From positions 1 to 30,877 of IMG/VR virus record IMGVR_UViG_2778261069_000012: 30,877 nucleotides of DNA; one strand, written 5' to 3'. The notes beneath the pieces are model-generated. The model saw only the letters and a program-made list of their open reading frames with translations. It made no database searches and had not been told where the DNA came from. This DNA is from a virus. Lineage: Duplodnaviria > Heunggongvirae > Uroviricota > Caudoviricetes. Positions within the stretch are counted from its first letter, which is position 1. Each line of letters begins with the position of its first letter. Below, in pieces: positions 1 through 30,877 of this stretch. A program made the translations under genes and the position numbers.

Positions 1-450
1 ATGATCAATACTAAAACTCCTTTCGTACTTCTGGGTCTGAACCATGATGATAATCTGGATATGATGCATGTTTTCGCTAATCGTGGTTATAACATCATTC
101 GTCATTCCGAAGACTCCAATTTCTCAACTGCTTTCTATGCTCTTAAACGTAATGGTCGCCCTACGGTGATCGTAGACTGCTTTACTGATGAAGGTCGTGA
201 ACAATACAACAACATTCCGGCAATTATTGTTCGTGATGACCTGCCGTTTGATGTTCGTGAATATGACGTTGATTTAGGCTCTTACTATGGGATCGCCGAT
301 CTTGACCAGATTATGGCTGATTACGGTAAACAACCCGCTCAGGAAGCCCCAGAAGAAGATGAACAAGACGAAGATGACGACTACGCACCAATCTGTTTCT
401 CTTCTCAGAATGGCTTCTACGGTTACGATGAAGGCTTAGATATGCTGTAA
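1..450 (+). CDS. hypothetical protein with acidic C-terminus; may be 5'-truncated by the window edge
   Basis: 149-codon ORF starting at nt 1; E/D-rich tail (EEDEQDEDDDY); no motif recognised. Confidence 0.5.
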   Translation: MINTKTPFVLLGLNHDDNLDMMHVFANRGYNIIRHSEDSNFSTAFYALKRNGRPTVIVDCFTDEGREQYNNIPAIIVRDDLPFDVREYDVDLGSYYGIADLDQIMADYGKQPAQEAPEEDEQDEDDDYAPICFSSQNGFYGYDEGLDML

Positions 451-486
451 GTTAGGTCAACCCTTTGGCGTCTTGTCAAGGGGGTG

Positions 487-515
487 TTGACAAAATTTTC
501 TGACTTTTTTATGAT
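487..515 (+). promoter_or_regulatory. sigma70-like promoter candidate
   Basis: TTGACA (487-492), 17-nt spacer, TATGAT (510-515), about 55 nt upstream of the ATG at 572; sits in a cluster of TTGAC-type hexamers. Confidence 0.4.
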
Positions 516-571
516 TATCGCACTTGACAATTTTGAACCTATTTGACCTAGATTTGTAAAGAGGATGTAAC

Positions 572-904
572 ATGAAAGAATTTACCATCACTAAATCCCT
601 GTATGACTGGACTGTTAAAATCTCCGGCAAAACCGTTTCTGTAAGCCCTAGCCATGTAGAAAATGATTGGGGCGTATCCCGTGAAACAATCTCCCGTAGT
701 ATGCATGTTCCGTTTGATCTGATGTCCTTAACTGGTATTCATGCAATGCTGGAAGTTCGCGAACAATTCGAAGCTGGTAATCACAATGCGGCTCCAGTTA
801 GCAATCACCTTCTTACCAATGAAGAACGTGAAATCATCGAAAACTGGCGTTATGAGTATGCGATTCCTTACTACGAAGAAGATCAGGTAGAAATCGATTG
901 GTGA
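572..904 (+). CDS. hypothetical protein (110 aa)
   Basis: ORF preceded by AGAGGA Shine-Dalgarno about 7 nt upstream; no motif recognised. Confidence 0.55.
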   Translation: MKEFTITKSLYDWTVKISGKTVSVSPSHVENDWGVSRETISRSMHVPFDLMSLTGIHAMLEVREQFEAGNHNAAPVSNHLLTNEEREIIENWRYEYAIPYYEEDQVEIDW

Positions 905-993
905 TAAATTTCTATTATAAATAAAATTGTTCCGGTGATGCTGCCGGAACTAGGAGGACCAAATCACTAAACCGTTTAAGGGGAATTTTTACT

Positions 994-1869
994 ATGAATA
1001 CTGTTACTACTATGAATACTGCTACCGTTTCTTTTGATGCTTCTCTGACTGCTACAAAGAAAGAATGGCAAATCGCTAAACCTGCTTCAATGTCTCTGGT
1101 TGTTGATAACACCAAACCGCTTACCATGTCTACTTTGCAGATCGCGCAAATGATGAATCGCGTAGACCGTCATCGTGATATTAAGCGAACTGTTGATCGC
1201 CTTGTTGCTTCTGGTGTAATCGTCCACACGCCAACGGCGCGCGAACAATTAGAGGATAAATTTGGTCGTTCTCGTGAAATTGAAGTTTACCTTCTTGATG
1301 AACGTTCCTCTTACATTGTTGTTGCTCAGATTTCGCCAGAATTTACCGCTTTTATTGTTGATGAATGGAAACGACTGAAAGAAGAAAATGAAAAACTTCG
1401 CTCGACTCCTGTTAATCCATACGAAAACTTCGAAGAAACAGATTGGATTGAACTGGCGTTAGAGAAAACCCGCGAAAATAAACGCCTTGTTGAATTGCAT
1501 GTACGTAAAGCTATCGACACTCACAGCTTAACCCGTCTTCTGGGCGAAAAACGCGGCTCTGTGAAGGTACAAATGATTCTGAAAGGGTTATGTGCTGCTG
1601 GTGTCCTTGAGCGTCGTCTGGATGCTTCTGGTAAGCCTAACGGCTATGATCTGCTGCCTCCTGGCTATATGTTCGCTCGTATGTCGGCACACGGTCAGAT
1701 CGAGTTCACTGCTGATGCTATCCCGCATCTCGTAAAACTCGGATTGCTTGAAGAAGAAAAGGCAGCAACTTTGAAATTGCCACAGCCTAACAACTCACGA
1801 GCAATCGTCAATAATACTGCTTTGCTGATTCGTCAGAATGCTGGATCACTGGAACACTTCGGATTGTAA
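994..1869 (+). CDS. Rha-family phage regulatory protein (antirepressor-like)
   Basis: Residues 45-115 (LTMSTLQIAQMMNRVDRHRDIKRTVDRL ... YLLDERSSYIVVAQISPEF) resemble the Phage_pRha domain from memory; SD AAGGGGA upstream; intrinsic terminator follows. Confidence 0.6.
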   Translation: MNTVTTMNTATVSFDASLTATKKEWQIAKPASMSLVVDNTKPLTMSTLQIAQMMNRVDRHRDIKRTVDRLVASGVIVHTPTAREQLEDKFGRSREIEVYLLDERSSYIVVAQISPEFTAFIVDEWKRLKEENEKLRSTPVNPYENFEETDWIELALEKTRENKRLVELHVRKAIDTHSLTRLLGEKRGSVKVQMILKGLCAAGVLERRLDASGKPNGYDLLPPGYMFARMSAHGQIEFTADAIPHLVKLGLLEEEKAATLKLPQPNNSRAIVNNTALLIRQNAGSLEHFGL

Positions 1870-1877
1870 TAATTTTT

Positions 1878-1903
1878 GCCCCTGAATTTCAGGGGCTTTT
1901 TTG
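1878..1903 (+). terminator. rho-independent terminator after the Rha-like gene
   Basis: GCCCCT / AGGGGC stem, 7-nt loop, then TTTTTT. Confidence 0.7.
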
Positions 1904-1988
1904 TATCTGGAGTTTTTCGCTGAAACCCTGCAATACAGATTTTCGAAATAATCAATGACTTAGAGATGTGCTCAGTTTTGAGCGGATA

Positions 1989-2018
1989 TAAAAAAAGGCC
2001 AACCCCGAAGGATTGGCC
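1989..2018 (-). terminator. rho-independent terminator for the minus-strand cassette
   Basis: GGCCAA / TTGGCC stem with 10-nt loop; the minus-strand transcript follows it with a U-run (A8 on the + strand at 1989-1996). Confidence 0.6.
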
Positions 2019-2025
2019 TAGAGAA

Positions 2026-2256
2026 TCAAATTCCTGTTGCTTCTACCATTTCACCATCAACCTGAACAAAGAATTTCAAATCAACTTTATGGAGTGATTT
2101 GTAGAATTGAGCGATTGAAATACCGTGTTCGCTCAATACTTGTTCTTTTTCGGCTTTACCTTTCGGTGCTTGATAGTACGCTTTTACAATCGCTGCCAGT
2201 TGTTCACGATCAAAACGGCAAGGACGACCGCGAGTAGCTTTAGTAGTCATAGTCAT
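2026..2256 (-). CDS. small basic protein, putative DNA-binding (AT-hook-like RGRP motif)
   Basis: 76-aa ORF; N-terminal TRGRPCRFDREQL and HTH-like EHGISIAQFYKSL; co-oriented with the 200-aa ORF upstream of it. Confidence 0.5.
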   Translation of the reverse strand: MTMTTKATRGRPCRFDREQLAAIVKAYYQAPKGKAEKEQVLSEHGISIAQFYKSLHKVDLKFFVQVDGEMVEATGI

Positions 2257-2284
2257 TTCTCCAAATTAAAGTGAATGTTCACCT

Positions 2285-2887
2285 TTATTTAGAGGACTTA
2301 CATTTTATCGGAAAAAGTTCTCCATCGTCAACCGACATAAAGAACTCTGCCTTAATCCCGTACTTCTTCAACCGTGAATAGTATGTACCCCGACTTATAT
2401 CAACCTTGCGCAGCACTTCGAAGAACTCTTTAGGATCGTTGTAATAATGGCTATATCGCACGTTAGCGAGTTCAACGAACAATTCCCTTGTATCACCATA
2501 CCCTTTCTTGAATGCCTCGTTACGATAGCGTGTAACAGCGTGATTCAATCTCTTCTGTTTCAACACTTCTCGGATCGGCTTCCACTGCAACCTATAGATA
2601 GGACCGTCATCAATGCGATAATAACGCTTGATATCAAAATCAAACCAATCTCGGACTCTCCGAAACTCTGTATGTGATGTTCTATGCTTCTTAAAGAAGT
2701 TGTGAACGTCTGTATAACCATTATCACGGTAAAATTCTATTAAAATCTCTTTCGCTTCCTCACGACTAAAACCGGATGTTGTGTAATCAGTCTTTAAGTG
2801 CTTATGCTTGACTGGCAAACGGTATTCATGATCGGTACAAGACAAGGCTAATTCTAATTCATCTCTTTGTTTCTGATTAATTAGCAT
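2285..2887 (-). CDS. hypothetical basic, aromatic-rich protein with C-terminal HTH-like segment
   Basis: 200-aa ORF; SD AAGGGGG directly upstream on the minus strand; C-terminal [17 protein letters not shown] looks HTH-like; divergent from terL. Confidence 0.55.
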
Positions 2888-2974
2888 ACAACCCCCTTAA
2901 ATCTTAATACCCGTATTTATCAGAAAATCAACAATTTAATAAATACCTTCATATTTCGTAATGAGGGTAATTAC

Positions 2975-10821: not shown

Positions 10822-13800
10822 ATGCAGTCGATCCAATTTAAACGAACAAATGTTTCTGGCAAAAAACCAACACCGGAACAATTACAGGTCGGTGAGGTAG
10901 CAATCAACCTTAAAGACCATGTTATTTTCACCAAAGACCGAGATCATGAAGTAGTTCAAATCTCTGTTTCTCCTGAAACTCACGCGGCACTAGAATCTAA
11001 AGTTGATGCTAACAAACAAGAATTGGATAGCACAATTGCAGTAAATGACCGCAATATTCACGCTAAAGTAGATGAAATTAAACAAACTACTGATGCAACC
11101 ATCGCAGCAAATCACGCAGAAATTAACAATAAAGTTGATGTAATTAAACGCGAAACCGACGCGACAATCGAGGCCAATAAAAATAAAGCTGCTTCCGATC
11201 TTGCTGGTGTTAAAGCTGAATTGTCGGATACCATCAACGCTAATAAAAATGCGGCTGCTGTAGCAACTCAGGAACTGGACACCCGCATCAATAAAAAAGT
11301 TGATGATATTAAATCCCGTACCGATGCAACCATCGTAAGCAATCACAAAGCAATCAATGACAAAGTTGATTTGATTAAGGCAGAAACTGACCGCACTATC
11401 GCAGCAAATCACGCCTATGCGGAAAATCAGTTAACTGACACCTACAATAACCTTACTGGTGTGATTGCAGCCAATAAGCAAGAGGCAGCGGATAACGTCG
11501 CAGCATTAACCCGTGATGTTGAAGCCAAAAATACAGCAATTCATAGCAAAGTTGACAATAACAAGTCTTACACTGATTCTGAATTGGCACGCTTAGAAAG
11601 CCGTATTGATGCAGCCGATGGATCAAGTGATGGTAAGTACATCAAAAAGCACGTAAACACTTGCACTGATGGCTATTTGCTGTCTAAGACCGCAAACCCT
11701 TTTGATGATCCGAGTGCTCTTAATCTTGATTACTTTGGTGCATTTCGCATGAATGACCTGGCGGGTCATATTGCAATGATCTTGCATGTTCCGCACCCAT
11801 CCGGCGTTAATCATGCTCGTGGTTTTGAGTTCACTTATGGGTCTAATCCGGTTCATACGGTAAGAACATACGGCTATGATGAATTGGGACATTTGGCATA
11901 TTCTCACCGCATGTATCATGAAGGTGATAAACCTACTCCGGCTGAAATTGGCGCATATTCGAAAGCAGAAATTGACCGCCTGTTCCAGAAGACGCTTAAT
12001 TTTGGGATCGAGGGCGGTTGGTTTAAACTCGGTAGTTTAACACTGCCACAGCAACACGGTCGCACGGCTAAGATTCGTTTAGTGGGTGGTAACGGTTATA
12101 ACGTCGGACAGAATGGACAAGCCAATATTATTGAACTGGTGATCCGTTGCGGCAACAATAGCCCGAAAGGTGTTGTATTCAATGCGTATTATACTATTTG
12201 GTATTATGAACAACATTTTTGTGCAATTCCTACCGATGGTGATAATTACGATCTTTACGCTTACTATGGTGCACATACAGGATTTGTTTTAGCAGAATAT
12301 CAAGTTTCTTCCGGTGGTGTTTCTTTAAACCTGTTGGATACTCCTGAATACCTGGGCGGTGAAAAACCTGTTGCAGATGAAATTTTTGATGCTCTTAACA
12401 TTTCATCGTTCAATAACTTTAGCAACCGTGGAACGTTAAATTTTGGTGGAAACCATCAAGGTCAATATGACATTGAGCATTTGAACGAACAACCGACAAA
12501 TGCTAAAAAGATGTTGCGTCGCTTCCGTAGTTCTGCTCCTGCCACTATCTGGCATGAGACAGTTGATGATAACGCATATCGTCTTGCTACTGGATACGAA
12601 GATACAAATCAGGAATTATTGCTGACAGCAACATCCGGGTTACATGTCAAGAAATTAACATTGGATGGCGGTGTTACTGGAAATTCTGGTATTGATATTC
12701 GTCGAGGACCAAACGAATCAAGTCATTTTAATTTCATGGATTATCGCACTGGACAAGATGTTCGTAATGGTTGGTTTGGTTTTGGTGATGGAACAACCAA
12801 AGATTTTATTTGGTGGAACGATAACGGTCAAAACTCTATAAACCTGATTGAAGATGGTGAATTGCATATTACTGGCGGTAAAGGCCAGAAAATTGTAATG
12901 AATAGCGAAGTTGCATTATCTGAAAATGCTCGTTTGGCTGTTAAAGGTGGCAATTATGGCTTAATTTTTAGAAATGATGGCGTTGGCTTCCATATTCTTA
13001 CCACAGATCTCGGTGATTCATTTGGACCGTGGAATACTCGTAGACCATTCAGCTATAATTTTGCGGACGGTGGATTATATTTAGGTGGTACTGAAACTGC
13101 TCGTTGTTTGCATCTGGGAATTGATGGTAGCACTCGTCTCGAAGACAACCTGTTCTTTAAAGCTGGTTCTCGTCAATCTATGGACTATATGGAACTCGTC
13201 CATTGGGGGGCAAGCAATACAGGTCGAAATAACGTTTTAAGTCTTCGTGACTCAAAAGGATTTTTCGCAGAATTTGAACGATTGGGTGATGATACCATTA
13301 AAAACACCTTCTTCGGGAAACTTAAAGTTAATCGTGGATCTGACGCAATCATCATGAATGCCGAAAGTGGCGATTCGTCTATATATTTGTTGGGTACTTG
13401 TGCTGATAATAACAACTGGTATATCGGTAAAGGTGGTGCTGATAATGGATTAGCGTTCTATAGCTATGCTACTAATGCTGCTATCAATATTACAAACGCG
13501 GGTGATATCGCGCTAAGTCCGAAAGGCGTCGAAATGACTCATGTCAATAACGTTCGGTTCTATGTTCATGGTGAACGTTGGACTGCTAGCCAATCTGGAG
13601 GCTGGGGCGATCAATGGGGATTAGAAGCGCCGATATTTGTCGATCATGGTTATGTTGGACCAGATAGCTATTATCCAATTATTAAAGGAAGAAGTTTAAT
13701 CACCAATCAAGGGTATACAACTGCCGTCGATTTTGGTATGCGTCGTGTTCCTCAAAATTGGGGGCAAGCTATTATTCGTGTTGGATCTGCGGAGGCATCG

Positions 13801-14232
13801 CCAGCGGCTGGTCATCCTCAAGCTGTATTCGAGTTCCATCATGATGGTACTTTCTATTCTCCTGGTAATGGTAACTTTAACGATGTTTATATTCGTTCCG
13901 ATGGTCGTCTGAAAATTAATGTTGAAGATTACGAAGAAAATGCGGTGGATAAGGTAAATAAACTCAAAGTTAAAACCTACGATAAAGTTAAATCTCTTAA
14001 TGACCGAGAAGTTATAGGTCATGAGATTGGTATTATCGCACAGGATTTACAAGAGGTATTACCGGAAGCTGTTAAAACCGCAAAAATTGGTGGTCTTGAT
14101 AACCCAGAAGAAATTTTAACAATTTCAAACTCCGCAGTGAACGCGCTTTTAATTAAAGCGGTCCAAGAAATGAGCGAAGAAAATAAACTTCTTCGTGAAC
14201 GTCTTGCTGCAATTGAAGCTAAATTAGGGTAA
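10822..14232 (+). CDS. tail fiber protein with C-terminal intramolecular chaperone (peptidase S74-like) domain
   Basis: 1136 aa; N-terminal KKPTPEQLQVGEVAINLKDHVIF fiber-type motif; four 22-aa KVDxIKxxTDATIxANH repeats; C-terminal GHEIGIIAQDLQEVLPEAV ... LLIKAVQEMSEENKLL typical of self-cleaving fiber chaperone domains. Confidence 0.85.
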   Translation: MQSIQFKRTNVSGKKPTPEQLQVGEVAINLKDHVIFTKDRDHEVVQISVSPETHAALESKVDANKQELDSTIAVNDRNIHAKVDEIKQTTDATIAANHAEINNKVDVIKRETDATIEANKNKAASDLAGVKAELSDTINANKNAAAVATQELDTRINKKVDDIKSRTDATIVSNHKAINDKVDLIKAETDRTIAANHAYAENQLTDTYNNLTGVIAANKQEAADNVAALTRDVEAKNTAIHSKVDNNKSYTDSELARLESRIDAADGSSDGKYIKKHVNTCTDGYLLSKTANPFDDPSALNLDYFGAFRMNDLAGHIAMILHVPHPSGVNHARGFEFTYGSNPVHTVRTYGYDELGHLAYSHRMYHEGDKPTPAEIGAYSKAEIDRLFQKTLNFGIEGGWFKLGSLTLPQQHGRTAKIRLVGGNGYNVGQNGQANIIELVIRCGNNSPKGVVFNAYYTIWYYEQHFCAIPTDGDNYDLYAYYGAHTGFVLAEYQVSSGGVSLNLLDTPEYLGGEKPVADEIFDALNISSFNNFSNRGTLNFGGNHQGQYDIEHLNEQPTNAKKMLRRFRSSAPATIWHETVDDNAYRLATGYEDTNQELLLTATSGLHVKKLTLDGGVTGNSGIDIRRGPNESSHFNFMDYRTGQDVRNGWFGFGDGTTKDFIWWNDNGQNSINLIEDGELHITGGKGQKIVMNSEVALSENARLAVKGGNYGLIFRNDGVGFHILTTDLGDSFGPWNTRRPFSYNFADGGLYLGGTETARCLHLGIDGSTRLEDNLFFKAGSRQSMDYMELVHWGASNTGRNNVLSLRDSKGFFAEFERLGDDTIKNTFFGKLKVNRGSDAIIMNAESGDSSIYLLGTCADNNNWYIGKGGADNGLAFYSYATNAAINITNAGDIALSPKGVEMTHVNNVRFYVHGERWTASQSGGWGDQWGLEAPIFVDHGYVGPDSYYPIIKGRSLITNQGYTTAVDFGMRRVPQNWGQAIIRVGSAEASPAAGHPQAVFEFHHDGTFYSPGNGNFNDVYIRSDGRLKINVEDYEENAVDKVNKLKVKTYDKVKSLNDREVIGHEIGIIAQDLQEVLPEAVKTAKIGGLDNPEEILTISNSAVNALLIKAVQEMSEENKLLRERLAAIEAKLG
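11065..11430 (+). repeat. in-frame tandem repeats (about 22-aa units) in the tail fiber shaft
   Basis: Four copies of KVD(E/V/D/L)IK(Q/R/S/A)xTD(A/R)TI(A/E/V)(A/S)N(H/K). Confidence 0.6.
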
Positions 14233-14238
14233 TTGGAA

Positions 14239-14258
14239 AGCGGGGAGAAATCTCCGCT
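14239..14258 (+). other. stem-loop with GAAA tetraloop between the fiber gene and the paralog cluster
   Basis: AGCGGGGA-GAAA-TCTCCGCT (8-bp stem, one G.U); no U-tract. Confidence 0.4.
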
Positions 14259-14270
14259 AAGGATTCTTAT

Positions 14271-14567
14271 ATGGGATATTGGGTAAGTAGTGAAATTAAT
14301 ACTAAAATCGATGCTTTAAAATGGCATGTATTTGATATTCCTAACGGCTATGGTACTGCTCGTGCTGGTGTCGCTGTAATGCGTCATAATGCTGGTGGTG
14401 GGTGGTCTGATGCACATATTAACGTAGATGGTTTGACCGTTGCTCGTCGTCGTGGTGGGACCAATTGGGGATCTACTATAAATTCGTTTGTTCCTGCTGG
14501 CTGCACCGTCTCCTTTGGTTTAGGGGGTGAAGGTGGTGTTGAATATTTTAAATTCATGGAGTTTTAA
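14271..14567 (+). CDS. small FDIPNGW-motif protein, paralog 1 of 3 (unknown function)
   Basis: 98 aa; SD AAGGA; shares WxxFDIPNG(W/Y), Gly-rich core and C-terminal TVSF ... YFKF with the two ORFs downstream. Confidence 0.65.
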   Translation: MGYWVSSEINTKIDALKWHVFDIPNGYGTARAGVAVMRHNAGGGWSDAHINVDGLTVARRRGGTNWGSTINSFVPAGCTVSFGLGGEGGVEYFKFMEF

Positions 14568-26066: not shown

Positions 26067-26420
26067 ATGTTAAGTAAGCATTTTTCTCGCAAGGAATTTA
26101 AATGTAAATGCGGAAAATGTGATTATGATACAATCGACGCTGAATTACTGGTGATTCTTGAGGATGTACGAGAGCACTTCGGTAAACCAGTGATTATTAA
26201 CAGTGGCAACCGTTGCCCGACTCATAACAAGAATGTAGGCGGGGCAGCCAATAGCTATCACGTTCGAGGCCGCGCGGCTGACATTGTTATCAAGGGTGTC
26301 TCGCCTGATATTGTTCATGCTTATCTTGATGGGAAATATCCTACTCAATACGGCTTAGGAAAATATAAAACCTTTACGCATATTGATTCCAGATCAAAAA
26401 AATCACGGTGGAATGGATAA
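26067..26420 (+). CDS. endolysin candidate, peptidase M15-type zinc peptidase
   Basis: 117 aa; SGNRCPTHNKNVGGAANSYHVRGRAADI ... THID matches the H/D/H zinc-binding signature of small M15 cell-wall peptidases; SD AAGGGGGTAA; no signal peptide. Confidence 0.78.
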   Translation: MLSKHFSRKEFKCKCGKCDYDTIDAELLVILEDVREHFGKPVIINSGNRCPTHNKNVGGAANSYHVRGRAADIVIKGVSPDIVHAYLDGKYPTQYGLGKYKTFTHIDSRSKKSRWNG

Positions 26421-26784
26421 AACAAAAGCGCCTCTGGTGGGCGCTTTTTTGTTAGAATATGCTGGCGACGTTAGCTATATTTCTGACCATTTTTTCATTA
26501 TAGACAAATATACCGCAGATGATAAAGTGGTATTCGACGAAGTTGATCCGTCTCTGGTTGAAGCAATGAAAGAACCTGAGATCGTCATTGAAGAAACAAA
26601 AGAAGAATCTCCAGAAGTTGAACCAGTGGTCGAAGAAGTTAAGTCAGTTGTTGAAGAAGCACTGGAAGTTAAAGTGGAATCTCCGGTAGCCAACATTTTC
26701 TCTGACGAAGCAGAGCATCGTTCTCCTGCACATGACACTGATTCATTTTGCGATCTTACTGGTTTCCAAAACTACAATAATTAA
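26413..26784 (+). CDS. hypothetical acidic protein; start uncertain
   Basis: 123-codon open frame, E/V-rich; the only in-frame ATG near the 5' end overlaps the endolysin stop, and the terminator hairpin lies inside the putative 5' end. Confidence 0.3.
   Translation: MDKTKAPLVGAFLLEYAGDVSYISDHFFIIDKYTADDKVVFDEVDPSLVEAMKEPEIVIEETKEESPEVEPVVEEVKSVVEEALEVKVESPVANIFSDEAEHRSPAHDTDSFCDLTGFQNYNN
26427..26451 (+). terminator. rho-independent terminator after the endolysin gene
   Basis: AGCGCC-TCTGGTG-GGCGCT followed by TTTTTT. Confidence 0.8.
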
Positions 26785-26793
26785 TTCTTATAA

Positions 26794-26832
26794 ATAGTAG
26801 TGAATATTATTTTATTGAGGATTCACTACTAT
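26794..26832 (+). promoter_or_regulatory. 12-bp stem enclosing the SD and start codon of the downstream nuclease gene
   Basis: ATAGTAGTGAAT (26794-26805) pairs perfectly with ATTCACTACTAT (26821-26832); loop contains GAGG; the 3' arm includes the AT of the ATG at 26831. Confidence 0.55.
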
Positions 26833-27829
26833 GAATACTACTTTAGCAAAGGATATCGAATTTACCGCAAAAAGCAAACGTGCGACCCCTCCGGTCGAAT
26901 ATGAAACCAGAATCATTAAAGTTTGTCAAGTGCATGGATGGTTATACAGTGGTTTTGTGCTTCCTGTAAAGAAACCATTCCAGAACACCAAAGTTTGCAT
27001 AGAAGTTAACGGAAAGGTTAAAACGCCATGTATTAGTCATGTTCTAACTGGTCAGTTTACTGGCAAAGATAGAGTATCACCGCCTAAGAAGAAGTTTAGA
27101 TTTACCGAAGAAGAACACTTAGAAAACGCTCGCAAGTTCTACAAGCCGATAGGGTGGGATGTGTTAGGTCTGGCTGAACCTTATCAGGGTGTTGACACTA
27201 AACTAATTCTTCGTTGTAAGTGCCACGGAAAGATTCACAAGAAAGGTGATTTACACAATAACCGCAGACAAGGCGGGTTAACATGCCCTTTGGTTAGGGG
27301 TGTACTTAAATCAATTCAGAATGGTAGAAAACAGGTTATCAGAAACAAGTTTGCACAGCGCCCTATGCACTTTTATCTAATTCGTGTTGGTGAGAAGTTT
27401 TTCAAATATGGAATTACCACTCGCAAAGATCCGATGCAACGGGTAAGAGAACACCAGAAGCACACCAGCGAGAAAATCACCTTTGAATGCTCACATTTGT
27501 TTAACATTGGATGGAAAGCTGGTGATTTAGAAATGGGGATTAAAAAGAATATTCAGGGCAAGAAAATCCCACGTAAGGTAATGAATAGCGGATTCACAGA
27601 AACGCTACCGATTAGCAAGCTGAAAGATGTTAAATCATTCATCAATGAATACATCCACACCAACCCATCTAAGCCAATGTATTTTGATGATACCAACGCA
27701 ATCAATCTGAACAACTACATTAGTGATGAAGACATAGAACGAGATTTATCGCAGTGGATGAATGCACCGTTAGCTGATTTAACACCGGAAGACTTAGAAC
27801 TCGATTTAAGCCCTTTAGAGGCTCTTTAA
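26831..27829 (+). CDS. GIY-YIG / T5orf172-like nuclease-domain protein with N-terminal Cys/His-rich region (homing-endonuclease-like)
   Basis: 332 aa; FYLIRVGEKFFKYGITTRKDPMQRVREH matches the GIY-(9-11 aa)-YIG-R-H pattern with conserved downstream FECS and SGFTE; N-terminal CxxH / CxCH clusters. Confidence 0.5.
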   Translation: MNTTLAKDIEFTAKSKRATPPVEYETRIIKVCQVHGWLYSGFVLPVKKPFQNTKVCIEVNGKVKTPCISHVLTGQFTGKDRVSPPKKKFRFTEEEHLENARKFYKPIGWDVLGLAEPYQGVDTKLILRCKCHGKIHKKGDLHNNRRQGGLTCPLVRGVLKSIQNGRKQVIRNKFAQRPMHFYLIRVGEKFFKYGITTRKDPMQRVREHQKHTSEKITFECSHLFNIGWKAGDLEMGIKKNIQGKKIPRKVMNSGFTETLPISKLKDVKSFINEYIHTNPSKPMYFDDTNAINLNNYISDEDIERDLSQWMNAPLADLTPEDLELDLSPLEAL

Positions 27830-27844
27830 TACAATTAAATTAAA

Positions 27845-27866
27845 AAGGGGTACGGATGTACCCCTT
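27845..27866. terminator. bidirectional terminator between convergent genes
   Basis: AAGGGGTAC-GGAT-GTACCCCTT 9-bp stem; U-rich on the minus-strand side, weaker U-tract on the + side. Confidence 0.7.
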
Positions 27867-27902: not shown

Positions 27903-29582
27903 TTAAATTCCAAATTCCTGTAATGGACCTGGTATTTCCTCTTCTGGTTTCCAGTTCTTATCTGTCAGCATGTCTAAACATGGATGCAAAACAAGCCCGT
28001 TACTCTCCAGAATCTGCCTATCATTGATAGTTTTCAAATCAATGAATATCCGGCCTTTCCTCGTTCCTCTTGAATTTTCTATTACAACTCTCTGGGTCTT
28101 TCCATCGATGTATTCCAGCACAAACAAGTTTTTATTTCTGTCAATCCTGCTACACCCGATCCGCTTTAGAGCTTGCTTAATCTTAAACCGGACCTTTAGT
28201 CGTTCCTCGTTATAAACATCTTCTAAATCAAATTCTGCGAGCTTCTCCCAGCCTTGAGAGTCCACAGAATACATTTCCTCTTCTGCCATCTTGATCTGAT
28301 TGTAGAGTGTTTCACGCTCGCTATTGAGGGTAGTAATCTGATCGGCTAGCTCCTTCGTTGCTCCTGTCATAGCAGAAAGGGCAATCAGGTTATCAATCTT
28401 GCGTGATATTTCATCAACCTGTACTTTCAACGCCGGAACCGGATTAGCCTTGTCCTCAGCAATCCAGATTTTATCAGCCAGCAATTGCAATACAGCTTTC
28501 TCTAATTGATCACCTCGAAAACTCCAGTTTGGATGCTCGCAATCAAGTCTACGTGAACGGGTCGCATCACATGTATAACGATACTGGTCAGAACGTTTGT
28601 TCGTTCCCTTCACTTTAACCATAGCGCAACCGCAATGATCACATTTCAATAGGCCAATACCACTAAGCAGGGGGATCGGTTTAACTTCTTCCTTGTCTCC
28701 AAAGTTCCATGCTCTAGCACCAATATTTTTCTTAAGGTGATAGAACGTAGCATCATCAATAACACGAGGGTAATAATTCTTTAACTCATAGTTAACACCA
28801 TCTACAGAGACTTCCTTGATACCAATCAAAGCGCGGGTATGGAACAACCTTTCAACCATTGCCCGTGACCATTTTGAATGCTTCTTATTACTAACCGCTG
28901 GTGGCGGTGTATATGTCTCGTTAAGGTGATCCAGTATTTCGGCGGTTGAACGTCCATTCTTCCGTAATTCCACAATCTCCTGAACAACAGGGAAGTACAC
29001 CGGATGAGGCAGCACATAACCGGAAGTGGTATCAGTCCACCACATATTCTTTCCAACTTCCTCGATAGCCACTGCCGGATTTTGTGGATTTTCTTGATGA
29101 GCTTTAATCTTAATCAATGCGCTTGAGTTAGTACGATTGCGCTTAGTCTGACTTTCCTCATTACCACGGATGAATAAAAGGATGGAGAACATCAGGTCCA
29201 TCGGATTAGCGGTAACAGTATCCAGCGAGTAGATCTTGTTATCCATGCCAGTAACAATGGTTATTCCCCTACGGATGATTGAAAGGAATAACTCCTGCGC
29301 ACTGACAATATCGGCACGGGATAAGCGGTCCAAGTTTTCAATGAATAGCCAGCTACCAACAGGAACGGATCTACCAATTGCATCAAGGAAACGAGATAGC
29401 GCCCCTGTTTTAGAGTTAGCACCCTTAAACGCAGATACACCCAGATCCTGATAATCATTTACCAGTTCAAGGTCATACTTTGCCGCAACCTCTCTCGCCA
29501 TCCTGATTTGTCGTTCATAACTCGAACCATCATTCTGACGCATAGACGAGAAGCGAATATACGAATACAGTTTAGTTTTCAT
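27903..29582 (-). CDS. large serine recombinase (integrase-type)
   Basis: 559 aa from ATG 29582 (the ORF track begins at an upstream TTG at 29597); N-terminal resolvase-type catalytic domain (YSYIRFSSMRQ ... ENLDRLSR); Cys-rich zinc-ribbon (CDHCGCAM ... C ... C); C-terminal coiled coil. Confidence 0.85.
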   Translation of the reverse strand: MKTKLYSYIRFSSMRQNDGSSYERQIRMAREVAAKYDLELVNDYQDLGVSAFKGANSKTGALSRFLDAIGRSVPVGSWLFIENLDRLSRADIVSAQELFLSIIRRGITIVTGMDNKIYSLDTVTANPMDLMFSILLFIRGNEESQTKRNRTNSSALIKIKAHQENPQNPAVAIEEVGKNMWWTDTTSGYVLPHPVYFPVVQEIVELRKNGRSTAEILDHLNETYTPPPAVSNKKHSKWSRAMVERLFHTRALIGIKEVSVDGVNYELKNYYPRVIDDATFYHLKKNIGARAWNFGDKEEVKPIPLLSGIGLLKCDHCGCAMVKVKGTNKRSDQYRYTCDATRSRRLDCEHPNWSFRGDQLEKAVLQLLADKIWIAEDKANPVPALKVQVDEISRKIDNLIALSAMTGATKELADQITTLNSERETLYNQIKMAEEEMYSVDSQGWEKLAEFDLEDVYNEERLKVRFKIKQALKRIGCSRIDRNKNLFVLEYIDGKTQRVVIENSRGTRKGRIFIDLKTINDRQILESNGLVLHPCLDMLTDKNWKPEEEIPGPLQEFGI

Positions 29583-29601
29583 ACCATTTCCAAACAAAAA
29601 C

Positions 29602-29631
29602 GCCCCTACCGCGTATTATAACGATAGGGGC
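29602..29631 (-). terminator. intrinsic terminator on the minus strand ending about 13 nt before the recombinase start codon
   Basis: GCCCCTA / TAGGGGC 7-bp stem with 16-nt loop containing TATAAT-like TTATAAT; U-run follows on the minus-strand transcript. Confidence 0.5.
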
Positions 29632-29647
29632 ATTGGTTAGTAAGTCA

Positions 29648-29893
29648 TTAATATTTCTTTCCAGTTAGTTTTGCATCACGTTTATTAATATCCTCGATAT
29701 GACTCCATACACACGCAGTAATAAAGTCGTCATCGTCACCAACTCCGGCAACCTGTGCTAATTCAGTACACAGTTGATTTAAAGAAGGTGCAACGGCAGC
29801 ACGCTTGACACTATCACCCTGTACATATTGTTCGGCATTTGCAGCACCAACCAAACCCAGAGCAAGAACAACACCCGCGATAATCTTTTTCAT
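29648..29893 (-). CDS. small secreted protein (signal-peptide-bearing; unknown function)
   Basis: 81 aa; N-terminal MKKIIAGVVLALGLVGAANA (type I signal peptide, AxA site); two Cys in the mature part; SD GAGGAA 8 nt upstream. Confidence 0.62.
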   Translation of the reverse strand: MKKIIAGVVLALGLVGAANAEQYVQGDSVKRAAVAPSLNQLCTELAQVAGVGDDDDFITACVWSHIEDINKRDAKLTGKKY

Positions 29894-29938: not shown

Positions 29939-30064
29939 TTAAAAGTTGATGCTGATTACCAGACCAAACACAACCGCACCAATCAAATCAATCCAGTTAA
30001 TACACAATCCGCTATATTCTTTCTTGAATGTCTTGGATGAAATGCCATCATGAAATTGTTTCAT
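29939..30064 (-). CDS. small membrane peptide candidate (41 aa)
   Basis: MKQFHDGISSKTFKKEYSGLCINWIDLIGAVVFGLVISINF; hydrophobic C-terminal segment; SD GGGGTGAG upstream; not in the supplied ORF track (below its length cutoff). Confidence 0.35.
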   Translation of the reverse strand: MKQFHDGISSKTFKKEYSGLCINWIDLIGAVVFGLVISINF

Positions 30065-30067
30065 TGC

Positions 30068-30148
30068 TCACCCCATACTAACGACAATATAAGAAAGACT
30101 AATCATAGTTGTGAGACTACCTCCCACGAATGAGATAAAAGCTAACAT
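30068..30148 (-). CDS. tiny hydrophobic peptide candidate (26 aa)
   Basis: MLAFISFVGGSLTTMISLSYIVVSMG; SD GGAGA 7 nt upstream; stop lies 3 nt from the next ATG. Confidence 0.25.
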   Translation of the reverse strand: MLAFISFVGGSLTTMISLSYIVVSMG

Positions 30149-30161
30149 GTTTGATTCTCCA

Positions 30162-30191
30162 GTTTAAAAAGCGGTGGGAATTGCACCCACC
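30162..30191 (-). terminator. rho-independent terminator on the minus strand after the 128-aa gene
   Basis: GGTGGG-AATTGCA-CCCACC stem-loop with a U-run on the minus-strand transcript. Confidence 0.65.
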
Positions 30192-30205
30192 AAATTAGAA
30201 ATTAA

Positions 30206-30592
30206 TTAAGCGCGAACGATGGTCAGAGTATCCAGCAAACCTTTTTCGTATAATTCGAAACACGTTTTATATTGCTCAATCTGGAAACCATAGCGGGTGA
30301 TCTTATTCAGTAGGACAATCGCGCTATTCTCATCTAGGTATTGTCCTTGCTGTCCAATGACATAAGTCTCGCGGGATAGTTTCAGCTTACGGAAACCTTT
30401 AACACCTAATTCCTTAGCAACCGCTTTAATCTCTTTAATCTCACCCTCAGCCGCAACATATTCAGCGTCGATAATCTCAGGTGATGATCTCAGTGCTACC
30501 AGAACTAAGGCCATTGCTTCTTCTTCTGTACGCGCAACACCAGCTTTCTCGAAAGTCATCTCACCAAATTTACGAATCATGATATTGAACAT
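30206..30592 (-). CDS. hypothetical protein (128 aa)
   Basis: ORF with coding-like composition; no motif recognised. Confidence 0.55.
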   Translation of the reverse strand: MFNIMIRKFGEMTFEKAGVARTEEEAMALVLVALRSSPEIIDAEYVAAEGEIKEIKAVAKELGVKGFRKLKLSRETYVIGQQGQYLDENSAIVLLNKITRYGFQIEQYKTCFELYEKGLLDTLTIVRA

Positions 30593-30604: not shown

Positions 30605-30877
30605 TTACTTCTTGCTGATAAACTCTTTAGCGATAAAGTTGATTACTTCTTTCAGCTTCTTGTCTGTATCGATGCACGCCGGTAATTCTTCTTTAATCTC
30701 CTGCGGCAGATACACATTGCCTTTAAAGTGGAGGAAACCATCATTACCAATCATGTAGGAGAACATCCATTCACAATCGTTATCCGCTTCCCAGAACGCC
30801 ACGGCCTCATCGCCAATCAAGGTAATGTCCATGTTGCGACGTGCTGCGTAGTTGATGATTGCTTTACCGATGTTCAT
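30605..30877 (-). CDS. hypothetical protein; may extend beyond the window edge
   Basis: 90-codon ORF whose first ATG is at the last 3 nt of the window, so the true start may lie outside. Confidence 0.5.
   Translation of the reverse strand: MNIGKAIINYAARRNMDITLIGDEAVAFWEADNDCEWMFSYMIGNDGFLHFKGNVYLPQEIKEELPACIDTDKKLKEVINFIAKEFISKK

Follow-up and report, generated by a model that had tools for sequence, protein, structure and literature searches.

Serine integrases are valued as genome-engineering tools, and few from enterobacteria are known to us with defined sites. The locus considered here lies in a window of 30,877 nt (the whole stretch of DNA that was analyzed; IMG/VR record IMGVR_UViG_2778261069_000012, Caudoviricetes). 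It comprises a minus-strand gene for a 559-residue large serine recombinase (LSR; 27903..29582, counted from the ATG and located by open-reading-frame (ORF) calling, Pfam and homologs) and the DNA immediately upstream of that gene. As a whole, the locus is best explained, and probably so, as that of a prophage serine integrase acting at the host gene ycdX, with a conserved terminator before the integrase gene and two putative promoters, one in the loop of that terminator and the other at the junction of the joined element ends.

The general properties of serine integrases have been described elsewhere (PMC3783163, PMC3556126). The enzyme of the window resembles the integrase of Listeria A118 (LI integrase; 4KIS, 6DNW), PhiC31 Int and Bxb1 Int in its domain order (catalytic domain, alpha-E helix, recombinase domain, zinc ribbon, coiled coil), and, as is usual for phage serine integrases, its att sites are short, with an imperfectly palindromic attP and a 2-bp, non-palindromic crossover. 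It differs from these three enzymes in sequence (12–17% structure-based identity), in having an extra beta-rich region (residues 472–533), in its Gram-negative, enterobacterial host and in an attB located inside ycdX; its activity is predicted. The nearest relatives from deposited phages are those of Burkholderia phages JC1, Bcep22 and Bcep176 and the YbcK-type LSRs (28–33% identity at 80–94% coverage). YbcK-type genes occur in the nin region of lambdoid phages that integrate by means of a tyrosine integrase.

State-dependent switching of the promoter of the integrase gene (int) has been demonstrated experimentally in the integrative and conjugative elements (ICEs) ICEKp1, ICEclc and ICEEc1, a theme shown for ICEs only recently (PMC13023037). 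The present locus is similar in its proposed state-dependent int transcription, in the terminator-like stem-loop before int and in a promoter that would reach int only after the ends are joined (PMC13023037). However, these ICEs have tyrosine integrases and a promoter that lies wholly in the 3' end, whereas here the integrase is a serine enzyme and the promoter would be assembled from both att halves. The present locus has, in addition, a candidate -10 element inside the terminator loop, and the ICE mechanism is experimental, whereas the one proposed here is predicted from sequence. Among other mobile elements, IS10/Tn10 carries its native promoter inside the inverted repeat, such that the inhibitory hairpin forms only in transcripts that read in from outside (self-protection); in IS911, IS30 and IS2, the joined ends create a strong circle-junction promoter that is destroyed by integration; and the “split-operon” control of int in P2 resembles the regulatory layout here. 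In IS10, the hairpin hides a ribosome-binding site, whereas here it would terminate transcription, and insertion sequences (ISs) and P2 use DDE transposases or a tyrosine integrase rather than a serine integrase.

An LSR prophage inside a host coding sequence, as found here, is also known from SPbeta (SprA, in spsM; PMC5499854) and from the candidates for “regulated gene integrity” (PMC7192596). As with such gene-disrupting prophages, precise excision would restore ycdX; no sign was seen here of developmental control of excision or of a role for the restored ycdX. The main text of the latter survey (PMC7192596) mentions none of the genes ycdX, hicB, codB and ydiJ (see below), and neither the LSR protein nor its attP was found in the supplements of an LSR discovery paper (PMC10083194). 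Literature searches on ycdX and prophages returned only a Cronobacter sakazakii prophage at ycdX (a table entry) and unrelated single-nucleotide polymorphisms in ycdX; those on embedded promoters or terminators returned nothing relevant.

The integrase and its attachment sites

The LSR protein is identical to WP_105175813.1 (“recombinase family protein”, Escherichia albertii) and is found at full length in hundreds of genomes. Pfam matches were obtained to Resolvase (PF00239; residues 6–153, 9e-15), Recombinase (PF07508; 198–287, 3e-9) and Zn_ribbon_recom (PF13408; 310–368, 1e-10). In an alignment of 12 homologs, R10, S12 (of the YxRxS motif), Q16, D85, R86 and R89 are kept, the zinc-ribbon cysteines C314, C317, C338 and C348 are invariant, and the resulting profile aligns with the zinc-domain and coiled-coil region of the Listeria A118 integrase. 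The AlphaFold2 model (predicted local distance difference test score 76) features, in order, a catalytic domain, a long alpha-E helix, a recombinase domain, a zinc ribbon and an antiparallel helical hairpin (382–406/410–439) that corresponds to the coiled coil; the beta-rich extra region is C-terminal to these. The best Foldseek matches were full-length complexes of serine integrases with DNA (LI integrase, 4KIS, and PhiC31 integrase). The enzyme has every sequence and structural hallmark of a large serine integrase. It is an uncharacterized representative of a known kind of enzyme, with att sites that are now defined and an integrase activity that is predicted.

In the original prediction, made from the sequence alone, this gene had been described as coding on the minus strand for a 559-residue recombinase with a resolvase domain, zinc ribbon and coiled coil; Pfam, AlphaFold2 and Foldseek confirmed that description. 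The span then assigned to it (27903–29631) holds only in part, as the coding sequence runs to 29582 and the end at 29631 falls in a non-coding hairpin (see below). The gene layout also bears out the claim that LSR is convergent with the plus-strand late genes, to which lysis and cargo genes can be added; the nearest is the gene at 26831..27829. A hairpin scan located a bidirectional hairpin (27845..27866) between the stop of this gene (27829) and that of LSR (27903). An in-frame TTG at 29597, which would give a protein of 564 residues, was rejected as the start codon: it lies within a T-run, and the homologs start with M-(K)-T-K-L-Y.

The window is an integrated E. albertii prophage, trimmed at gene starts. 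All 12,975 of its bases that could be compared with contig PTRS01000044.1 of GCA_002965725.1 are identical, and the host flank of that contig is 89% identical to E. coli. The 27 copies in IMG/VR are all trimmed prophage calls, and nearly all, like the window, begin precisely with the start codon of a phage gene. The region is carried by 60 of 5,426 complete E. coli genomes. Beside the LSR end of the element are csgDEFG, ycdZ, ycdY and a truncated ycdX; in strain 2017.18.04CC, a 36.9-kb element lies between the two halves of ycdX, and PigCaeca_2 has an IS1-deleted remnant of ca. 23 kb at the same position.

The att sites were derived by aligning the element junctions with the empty ycdX of strain K-12, an approach that follows PMC10083194. 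The attL sequence matches attB through ...CCCGGAAA, and attR matches it from AATCCC... onward; their overlap is exactly AA (ycdX nt 400–401, which belong to the codon for Asn134 in the HPGNP motif). The sites are attB, ...GCCATCCCGGA-AA-TCCCAAATATG...; attR, GTGTTATTGTGGGTACATGATATTAGGG-AA-TCCC...; and attL, ...CCCGGA-AA-CCCGAACGTAGTCAACCCCCAATAACAC. The reconstructed 58-bp attP, GTGTTATTGTGGGTACATGATATTAGGG-AA-CCCGAACGTAGTCAACCCCCAATAACAC (detection sequence GATATTAGGGAACCCGAACGTAG), is an imperfect palindrome, GTGTTATTG...GGG-AA-CCC...CAATAACAC, with 28-bp arms that are symmetric at 19 of 28 positions. A second variant of the element differs slightly in its P' arm and shares this junction. 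On the LSR strand, the attR of the window's own host is ...ACTTTGGG-TT-CCCTAATATC and thus retains the AA of the Asn codon. There is no target-site duplication, the crossover is 2 bp, and reconstruction of excision in silico restores the exact ycdX sequence of K-12. No other recombinase is annotated in the element. The junctions bear the signatures of a serine integrase; as judged from these alignments, the element is shown to insert inside ycdX by conservative recombination at a 2-bp AA crossover.

A temperate or integrative lifestyle had been anticipated, together with an attP core near the gene, and a search of host genomes for sites split by the region had been proposed as a check. That search found ycdX, and in relatives hicB and codB, split by the element with host DNA on both sides and LSR-type attL and attR, which supports the integrase reading. 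As to the attP core, attR was found only 43–44 nt past the end of the window, but the window itself has no attP because it is an integrated prophage. Measured from the last position of the window (30877), the crossover is 43–44 nt further on; relative to the LSR ATG, it is 1.34 kb upstream. In window-equivalent numbering, the P arm of attP would be at 30892-30919 and the crossover dinucleotide at 30920-30921. The other half of attP is located ca. 4.3 kb outside the left end of the window, beside a small-terminase gene.

Hosts of this prophage family are Escherichia, Shigella, Salmonella and Edwardsiella. LSRs with 69–76% identity to that of the window (Salmonella and another host) and with 60% identity (Edwardsiella) are in ycdX or a ycdX-like gene, those with 88–92% identity (E. 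coli) are inside hicB, and two with 74% identity are in codB and ydiJ, respectively. The junctions of the hicB and codB relatives are analogous to those of the ycdX type. When the hicB-type LSR is compared with that of the window, identity falls from 99% (catalytic domain) to 85% (recombinase domain) and 83% (zinc domain). That at least four host genes are occupied, and that the enzymes diverge mainly in their DNA-binding domains, speaks for recent mobility. The P arm nearest to LSR has the conserved sequence CCCTAATA(T/C)...CCCAC..AACAC, and in the codB and ydiJ types it is CCTAACATATCATT.CAACCAC. A TT/AA crossover in every relative was considered and rejected, as the codB-type junctions share GGCA; this shared sequence and the symmetry of the arms indicate a CA crossover for that type. 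As a side observation, hicB is the antitoxin gene of the hicAB pair, and the 88–92%-identical relatives split hicB and leave hicA intact (L130 3895-4014, L131 6850-7161; E. coli H2, NZ_CP028733.1).

The terminator hairpin and the candidate promoters

Directly 5' of LSR, on the minus strand, fold and conservation analyses located a hairpin with the features of an intrinsic terminator (29599..29634; core stem 29631-29622 paired with 29611-29602). Its sequence from 29634 to 29599 is AATGCCCCTATCGT-TATAATAC-GCGGTAGGGGCGTT; it has 14 pairs, including 7 G-C pairs, and an 8-nt loop, and is followed by UUUUUGUUU. The T-run (TTTTTGTTT, 29592..29600, minus strand) ends 9 nt before the LSR ATG (GGAAATGGT), or 13 nt if the distance is counted from the T5 block. 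A hairpin and U-run abutting the start codon had been predicted at this spacing and are confirmed, and it is correct that no space for a promoter is left between terminator and ATG. The 91-nt fold containing the hairpin has an energy of -26 kcal/mol (z = -3.9; 0 of 200 shuffles folded as well).

A G+C-rich hairpin with a T-run is present 9–14 nt before the LSR ATG in all relatives that are at least 60% identical. Three distinct stem sequences were found in the relatives, each followed by a T-run, and the stem types before LSR are GCCCCTATCG/CGGTAGGGGC, GCCCCTATC/GGTAGGGGC, ACCCTCGTC/GGCGAGGGT and GCCCTGCT/AGCGGGGC; because the hairpin recurs with other stem sequences, it is beyond chance. In RNAalifold, with 7 variants, compensatory cases (changes on both sides) were found at 5 of 10 stem pairs, a covariation that points to selection on the structure. 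A sister clade with ca. 40% identity (Enterobacter, Citrobacter, Atlantibacter, Buttiauxella and marine genera) has neither the hairpin nor TATAAT before the ATG; the hairpin is therefore restricted to the clade with at least 60% identity. The hairpin and its T-run thus form a conserved structure that is predicted to act as an intrinsic terminator.

Upstream on the minus strand are two small conserved ORFs that precede LSR in every family member examined: one of 26 residues, hydrophobic (MLAFISFVGGSLTTMISLSYIVVSMG; 30068..30148), and one of 41 residues, tail-anchored (MKQFHDGISSKTFKK...IDLIGAVVFGLVISINF; 29939..30064). The latter has 40–46 residues across the family and the pattern FHDGISSKTFKK... 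followed by a transmembrane segment. In the window, a variable slot between the 41-residue ORF and the terminator holds the gene of an 81-residue secreted cargo protein (signal peptide MKKIIAGVVLALGLVGAANA; 29648..29893, minus strand), for which no family match was found. The order on the minus strand is thus the stop of this gene (29648), the hairpin, the T-run, 9 nt and the LSR ATG. Other Escherichia variants likewise have a secreted cargo gene inserted between the 40–46-residue ORF and the terminator. In the minimal variants (Salmonella, L099, Edwardsiella), the 40-residue ORF stops 49–63 nt before the LSR ATG, and the hairpin is therefore the terminator of that ORF; two minimal variants that have no cargo gene upstream still carry the LSR-proximal hairpin. 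Since the small ORF, the hairpin and int are conserved and the cargo is variable, the hairpin belongs to the small-ORF/int module and is more than a moron's terminator. It would close the att-proximal transcription unit (small conserved ORFs plus cargo genes) and insulate int from transcription arriving from upstream. As a separate observation, the 26- and 41-residue ORFs are unannotated and are conserved down to Edwardsiella (60% LSR identity).

The loop of the hairpin contains TATAAT (29615..29620, minus strand), a candidate -10 element, on grounds of conservation, of an int promoter nested in the terminator; a weak -35-like hexamer, TTACTA (29638..29643, minus strand), lies 17 bp upstream. 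The exact TATAAT is present in the loop of 5 of 7 distinct hairpin types, despite differing stems and loop flanks (T-TATAAT-AC, GA-TATAAT, G-TATAAT, GT-TATAAT and TATAAT alone). A TTnnnn hexamer, with 3–4 of 6 matches to the -35 consensus, is always found 17 bp upstream of it (TTCACC, TTTATT, TTCTAA or TTTTCT in relatives). In the window, and in the full element, this is the sole terminator-like hairpin with TATAAT. The conservation of TATAAT suggests a terminator-nested int promoter, which we hold to be somewhat the better bet. In such an arrangement, int would have its own weak sigma-70 promoter, with TATAAT in the loop as the -10 and the TTnnnn hexamer as the -35. Transcription would start ca. 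7 nt past the -10, in the descending arm, giving a 20–25-nt leader, and the transcript, without the 5' arm of the hairpin, would be unable to form the terminator and would escape termination.

A second candidate promoter is split by the crossover. When the ends of the element are joined, the LSR strand reads ...GGGGG-TTGACT-ACGTTCGGG-TT-CCCTAA-TATCAT-GTACCCACAATAACAC-GAGGGGGTACAACA-ATG, where the ATG is that of the 90-residue gene at the end of the window (30605-30877, minus strand). Its -35 hexamer is in the P' arm, its -10 hexamer is in the P arm, and the crossover is in the spacer. All four reconstructed attP sites (three att types) have exactly one sigma-70 site with 10 of 12 consensus matches, and it always spans the crossover on the LSR strand: TTGACT-17-TATCAT in the ycdX type (two variants), TTTACA-17-TATCAT in the hicB type and TTGACC-16-TATCAT in the codB type. 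Only 5 equally good sites were found in 61,754 window positions. In attR, there is either no site or one with at most 8 of 12 matches, and attL also loses the junction promoter. A near-consensus promoter would exist, then, only with the element ends joined. It would be active on the circular genome alone, reading into the att-proximal genes (the 90-residue gene and that of a 128-residue protein, 30206-30592, minus strand), and integration would switch it off. Past two terminators, read-through from the junction promoter could reach int; a terminator-like hairpin was located after the 128-residue gene (30172..30192, minus strand; hairpin scan).

These two features may amount to a two-state control of int that is encoded purely in cis, in a family that also forms a natural retargeting series; the proposal is offered tentatively and is at present less than even in our estimation. 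The strong promoter split by the crossover would fire after infection or excision and be silenced by the integration reaction that it helps to cause, and the terminator with its loop -10 would block all incoming transcription and leave a basal, terminator-immune int transcript for excision.

Alternative explanations

Several observations weigh against the interpretation given above; they are taken here together with two other explanations of the data. The hairpin might serve only to end the upstream small-ORF/cargo unit, in which case int would lack a promoter of its own and would be made by leaky read-through of transcripts begun at promoters further upstream or, once the element is circular, at the junction promoter of attP, and the loop TATAAT would be an inherited, AT-rich loop. 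We consider this rather unlikely. It accords with the position of the terminator, which directly follows the stop of the 40-residue ORF or of the cargo gene in every variant, with promoter-like sites upstream (30115-30086 and 29942-29913) and the 10/12 junction promoter in the circle, and with ICEKp1, in which int is reportedly expressed through terminator-like stem-loops in the 5'-untranslated region (PMC13023037). The loop site has a perfect -10 but a weak -35 (3–4 of 6) and was missed by the consensus scanner, and in variants L102 and L126, which have other cargo genes, the terminator loops contain no TATAAT, yet LSR is intact. The hairpin variants compared are, besides, homologous and thus non-independent samples, and the junction hexamers are inside the recombinase-binding arms, so that their conservation could reflect recognition by the integrase. 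However, an exact TATAAT in five types with differing stems (CCCCTATCG, CCCTCGTC, CCCTGCT) and flanks would hardly be expected unless the hexamer were under selection; the strong-looking stem and U-run would allow very little read-through; and the junction promoter does not exist in the prophage, yet excision needs int. Of the two routes of expression that the original prediction had left open, read-through or a -10 in the loop, the comparative data thus favor the latter, since the hexamer stays constant in 5 of 7 types as the stems covary, and read-through is the less likely route.

The element might, alternatively, be a cryptic or defective prophage or the producer of a particle like a gene transfer agent, with LSR either a relic or a non-integrative enzyme (for resolution or inversion), like those of the YbcK type. 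In keeping with this, no repressor, replication, excisionase or recombination directionality factor gene was recognized in the ca. 36.9-kb element with Pfam, PHROGs and NCBIfam. No free phage form was found in IMG/VR, JGI metagenomes, INPHARED or the 5,426 E. coli genomes. As to attP, exact and degenerate junction patterns had no match in IMG/VR or the JGI metagenome contigs, and the 302-bp reconstructed attP had no match of at least 80% coverage in the E. coli genomes. The relatives in phage databases include YbcK-like proteins (31–32% identity), and some copies are degraded by an IS1 or IS3 insertion/deletion in the tail-fiber region (L005 18319-19016 in PigCaeca_2; L133 21336-22483 in 06-00048). 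Both of these copies retain an intact LSR and both att junctions. LSR is, moreover, the element's only recombinase and is sited at its end; it is full-length in hundreds of genomes; the junctions are of the kind left by LSRs (a 2-bp crossover, a palindromic attP and no duplicated target); and the spread of close relatives over at least four host genes, together with a divergence that is greatest in the DNA-binding domains, points to recent, repeated integration. We regard a defective or non-integrative origin as highly improbable, and an LSR that integrates the prophage into ycdX is preferred.

The remainder of the element and the significance of the locus

From its gene content, the element is, on present annotation, a siphovirus-like prophage of ca. 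36.9 kb. The window has genes for a lambda-like large terminase, a portal protein, a protease-capsid fusion, tail proteins and a tape measure, and further ones for a T4-like long tail fiber, a gpJ-like tip protein and an M15 endolysin; the capsid protein shares 43% identity with its counterpart in Escherichia phage DCP80. The whole element corresponds to 1307-38164 of the copy L006, and its left part to window 1-2900 plus L006 33951-38164. The small-terminase gene (phrog_57) is at the extreme left end, by attL, ca. 6.5 kb from that of the large terminase. Just to the left of window position 1 is a gene-free, divergent region of 1.39 kb (L006 33951-35338) with a perfect tandem repeat (21 bp x 2.8, TTTCAGGGGCAAAAATTAGAT; L006 34645-34702); this region could be an origin or an operator array. 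Rfam searches at gathering thresholds found nothing inside the element, including the tandem-repeat region. The best sigma-70-like site of the window (TTGACA-17-TATGAT, 11 of 12 matches; 487-515, plus strand) lies upstream of genes for a 110-residue protein (572-904) and a Rha-like protein (994-1869).

When the region and 25 kb of the window were compared by megablast with 50,697 phage records, only a T4-like tail-fiber segment was matched. Window positions 12343-14538, which lie in the gene of a 1136-residue tail fiber (10822-14232) and the next small gene, are 97% identical in DNA sequence to the virulent, T4-like Escherichia virus KFS-EC, and the match covers the distal subunit of the long tail fiber and the adhesin region. 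This match suggests that a T-even phage and the siphovirus-like prophage have recently exchanged DNA.

The slot between the endolysin gene and the LSR stop (window 26383-27829; equivalents in L008-L013 and L097-L102) carries variable cargo. In the window, this consists of a 133-residue protein and a 332-residue, endonuclease-like protein (phrog_681); elsewhere, it is a UvsW-like helicase with a CapR-like protein, UvsY, a T4-spanin-like protein, or Kiwa KwaA/KwaB. The slot looks like a hotspot for defense and accessory genes. PADLOC and NCBIfam added nothing for the genes neighboring LSR.

A concrete attP/attB pair and its central dinucleotide are now available for an enterobacterial LSR. Its close relatives with different targets could serve in studies of how site specificity shifts; the series with 60–92% identity over at least four attB sites (ycdX, hicB, codB, ydiJ) would be a ready-made map of specificity determinants for an LSR native to E. 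coli. Should the promoters prove not to be real, what remains is a prophage integrase that is ordinary, though unannotated. If they are real, the nested -10 and the promoter split by the crossover would illustrate, in compact form, a regulatory layout that ties the expression of an integrase to the physical state of its element.

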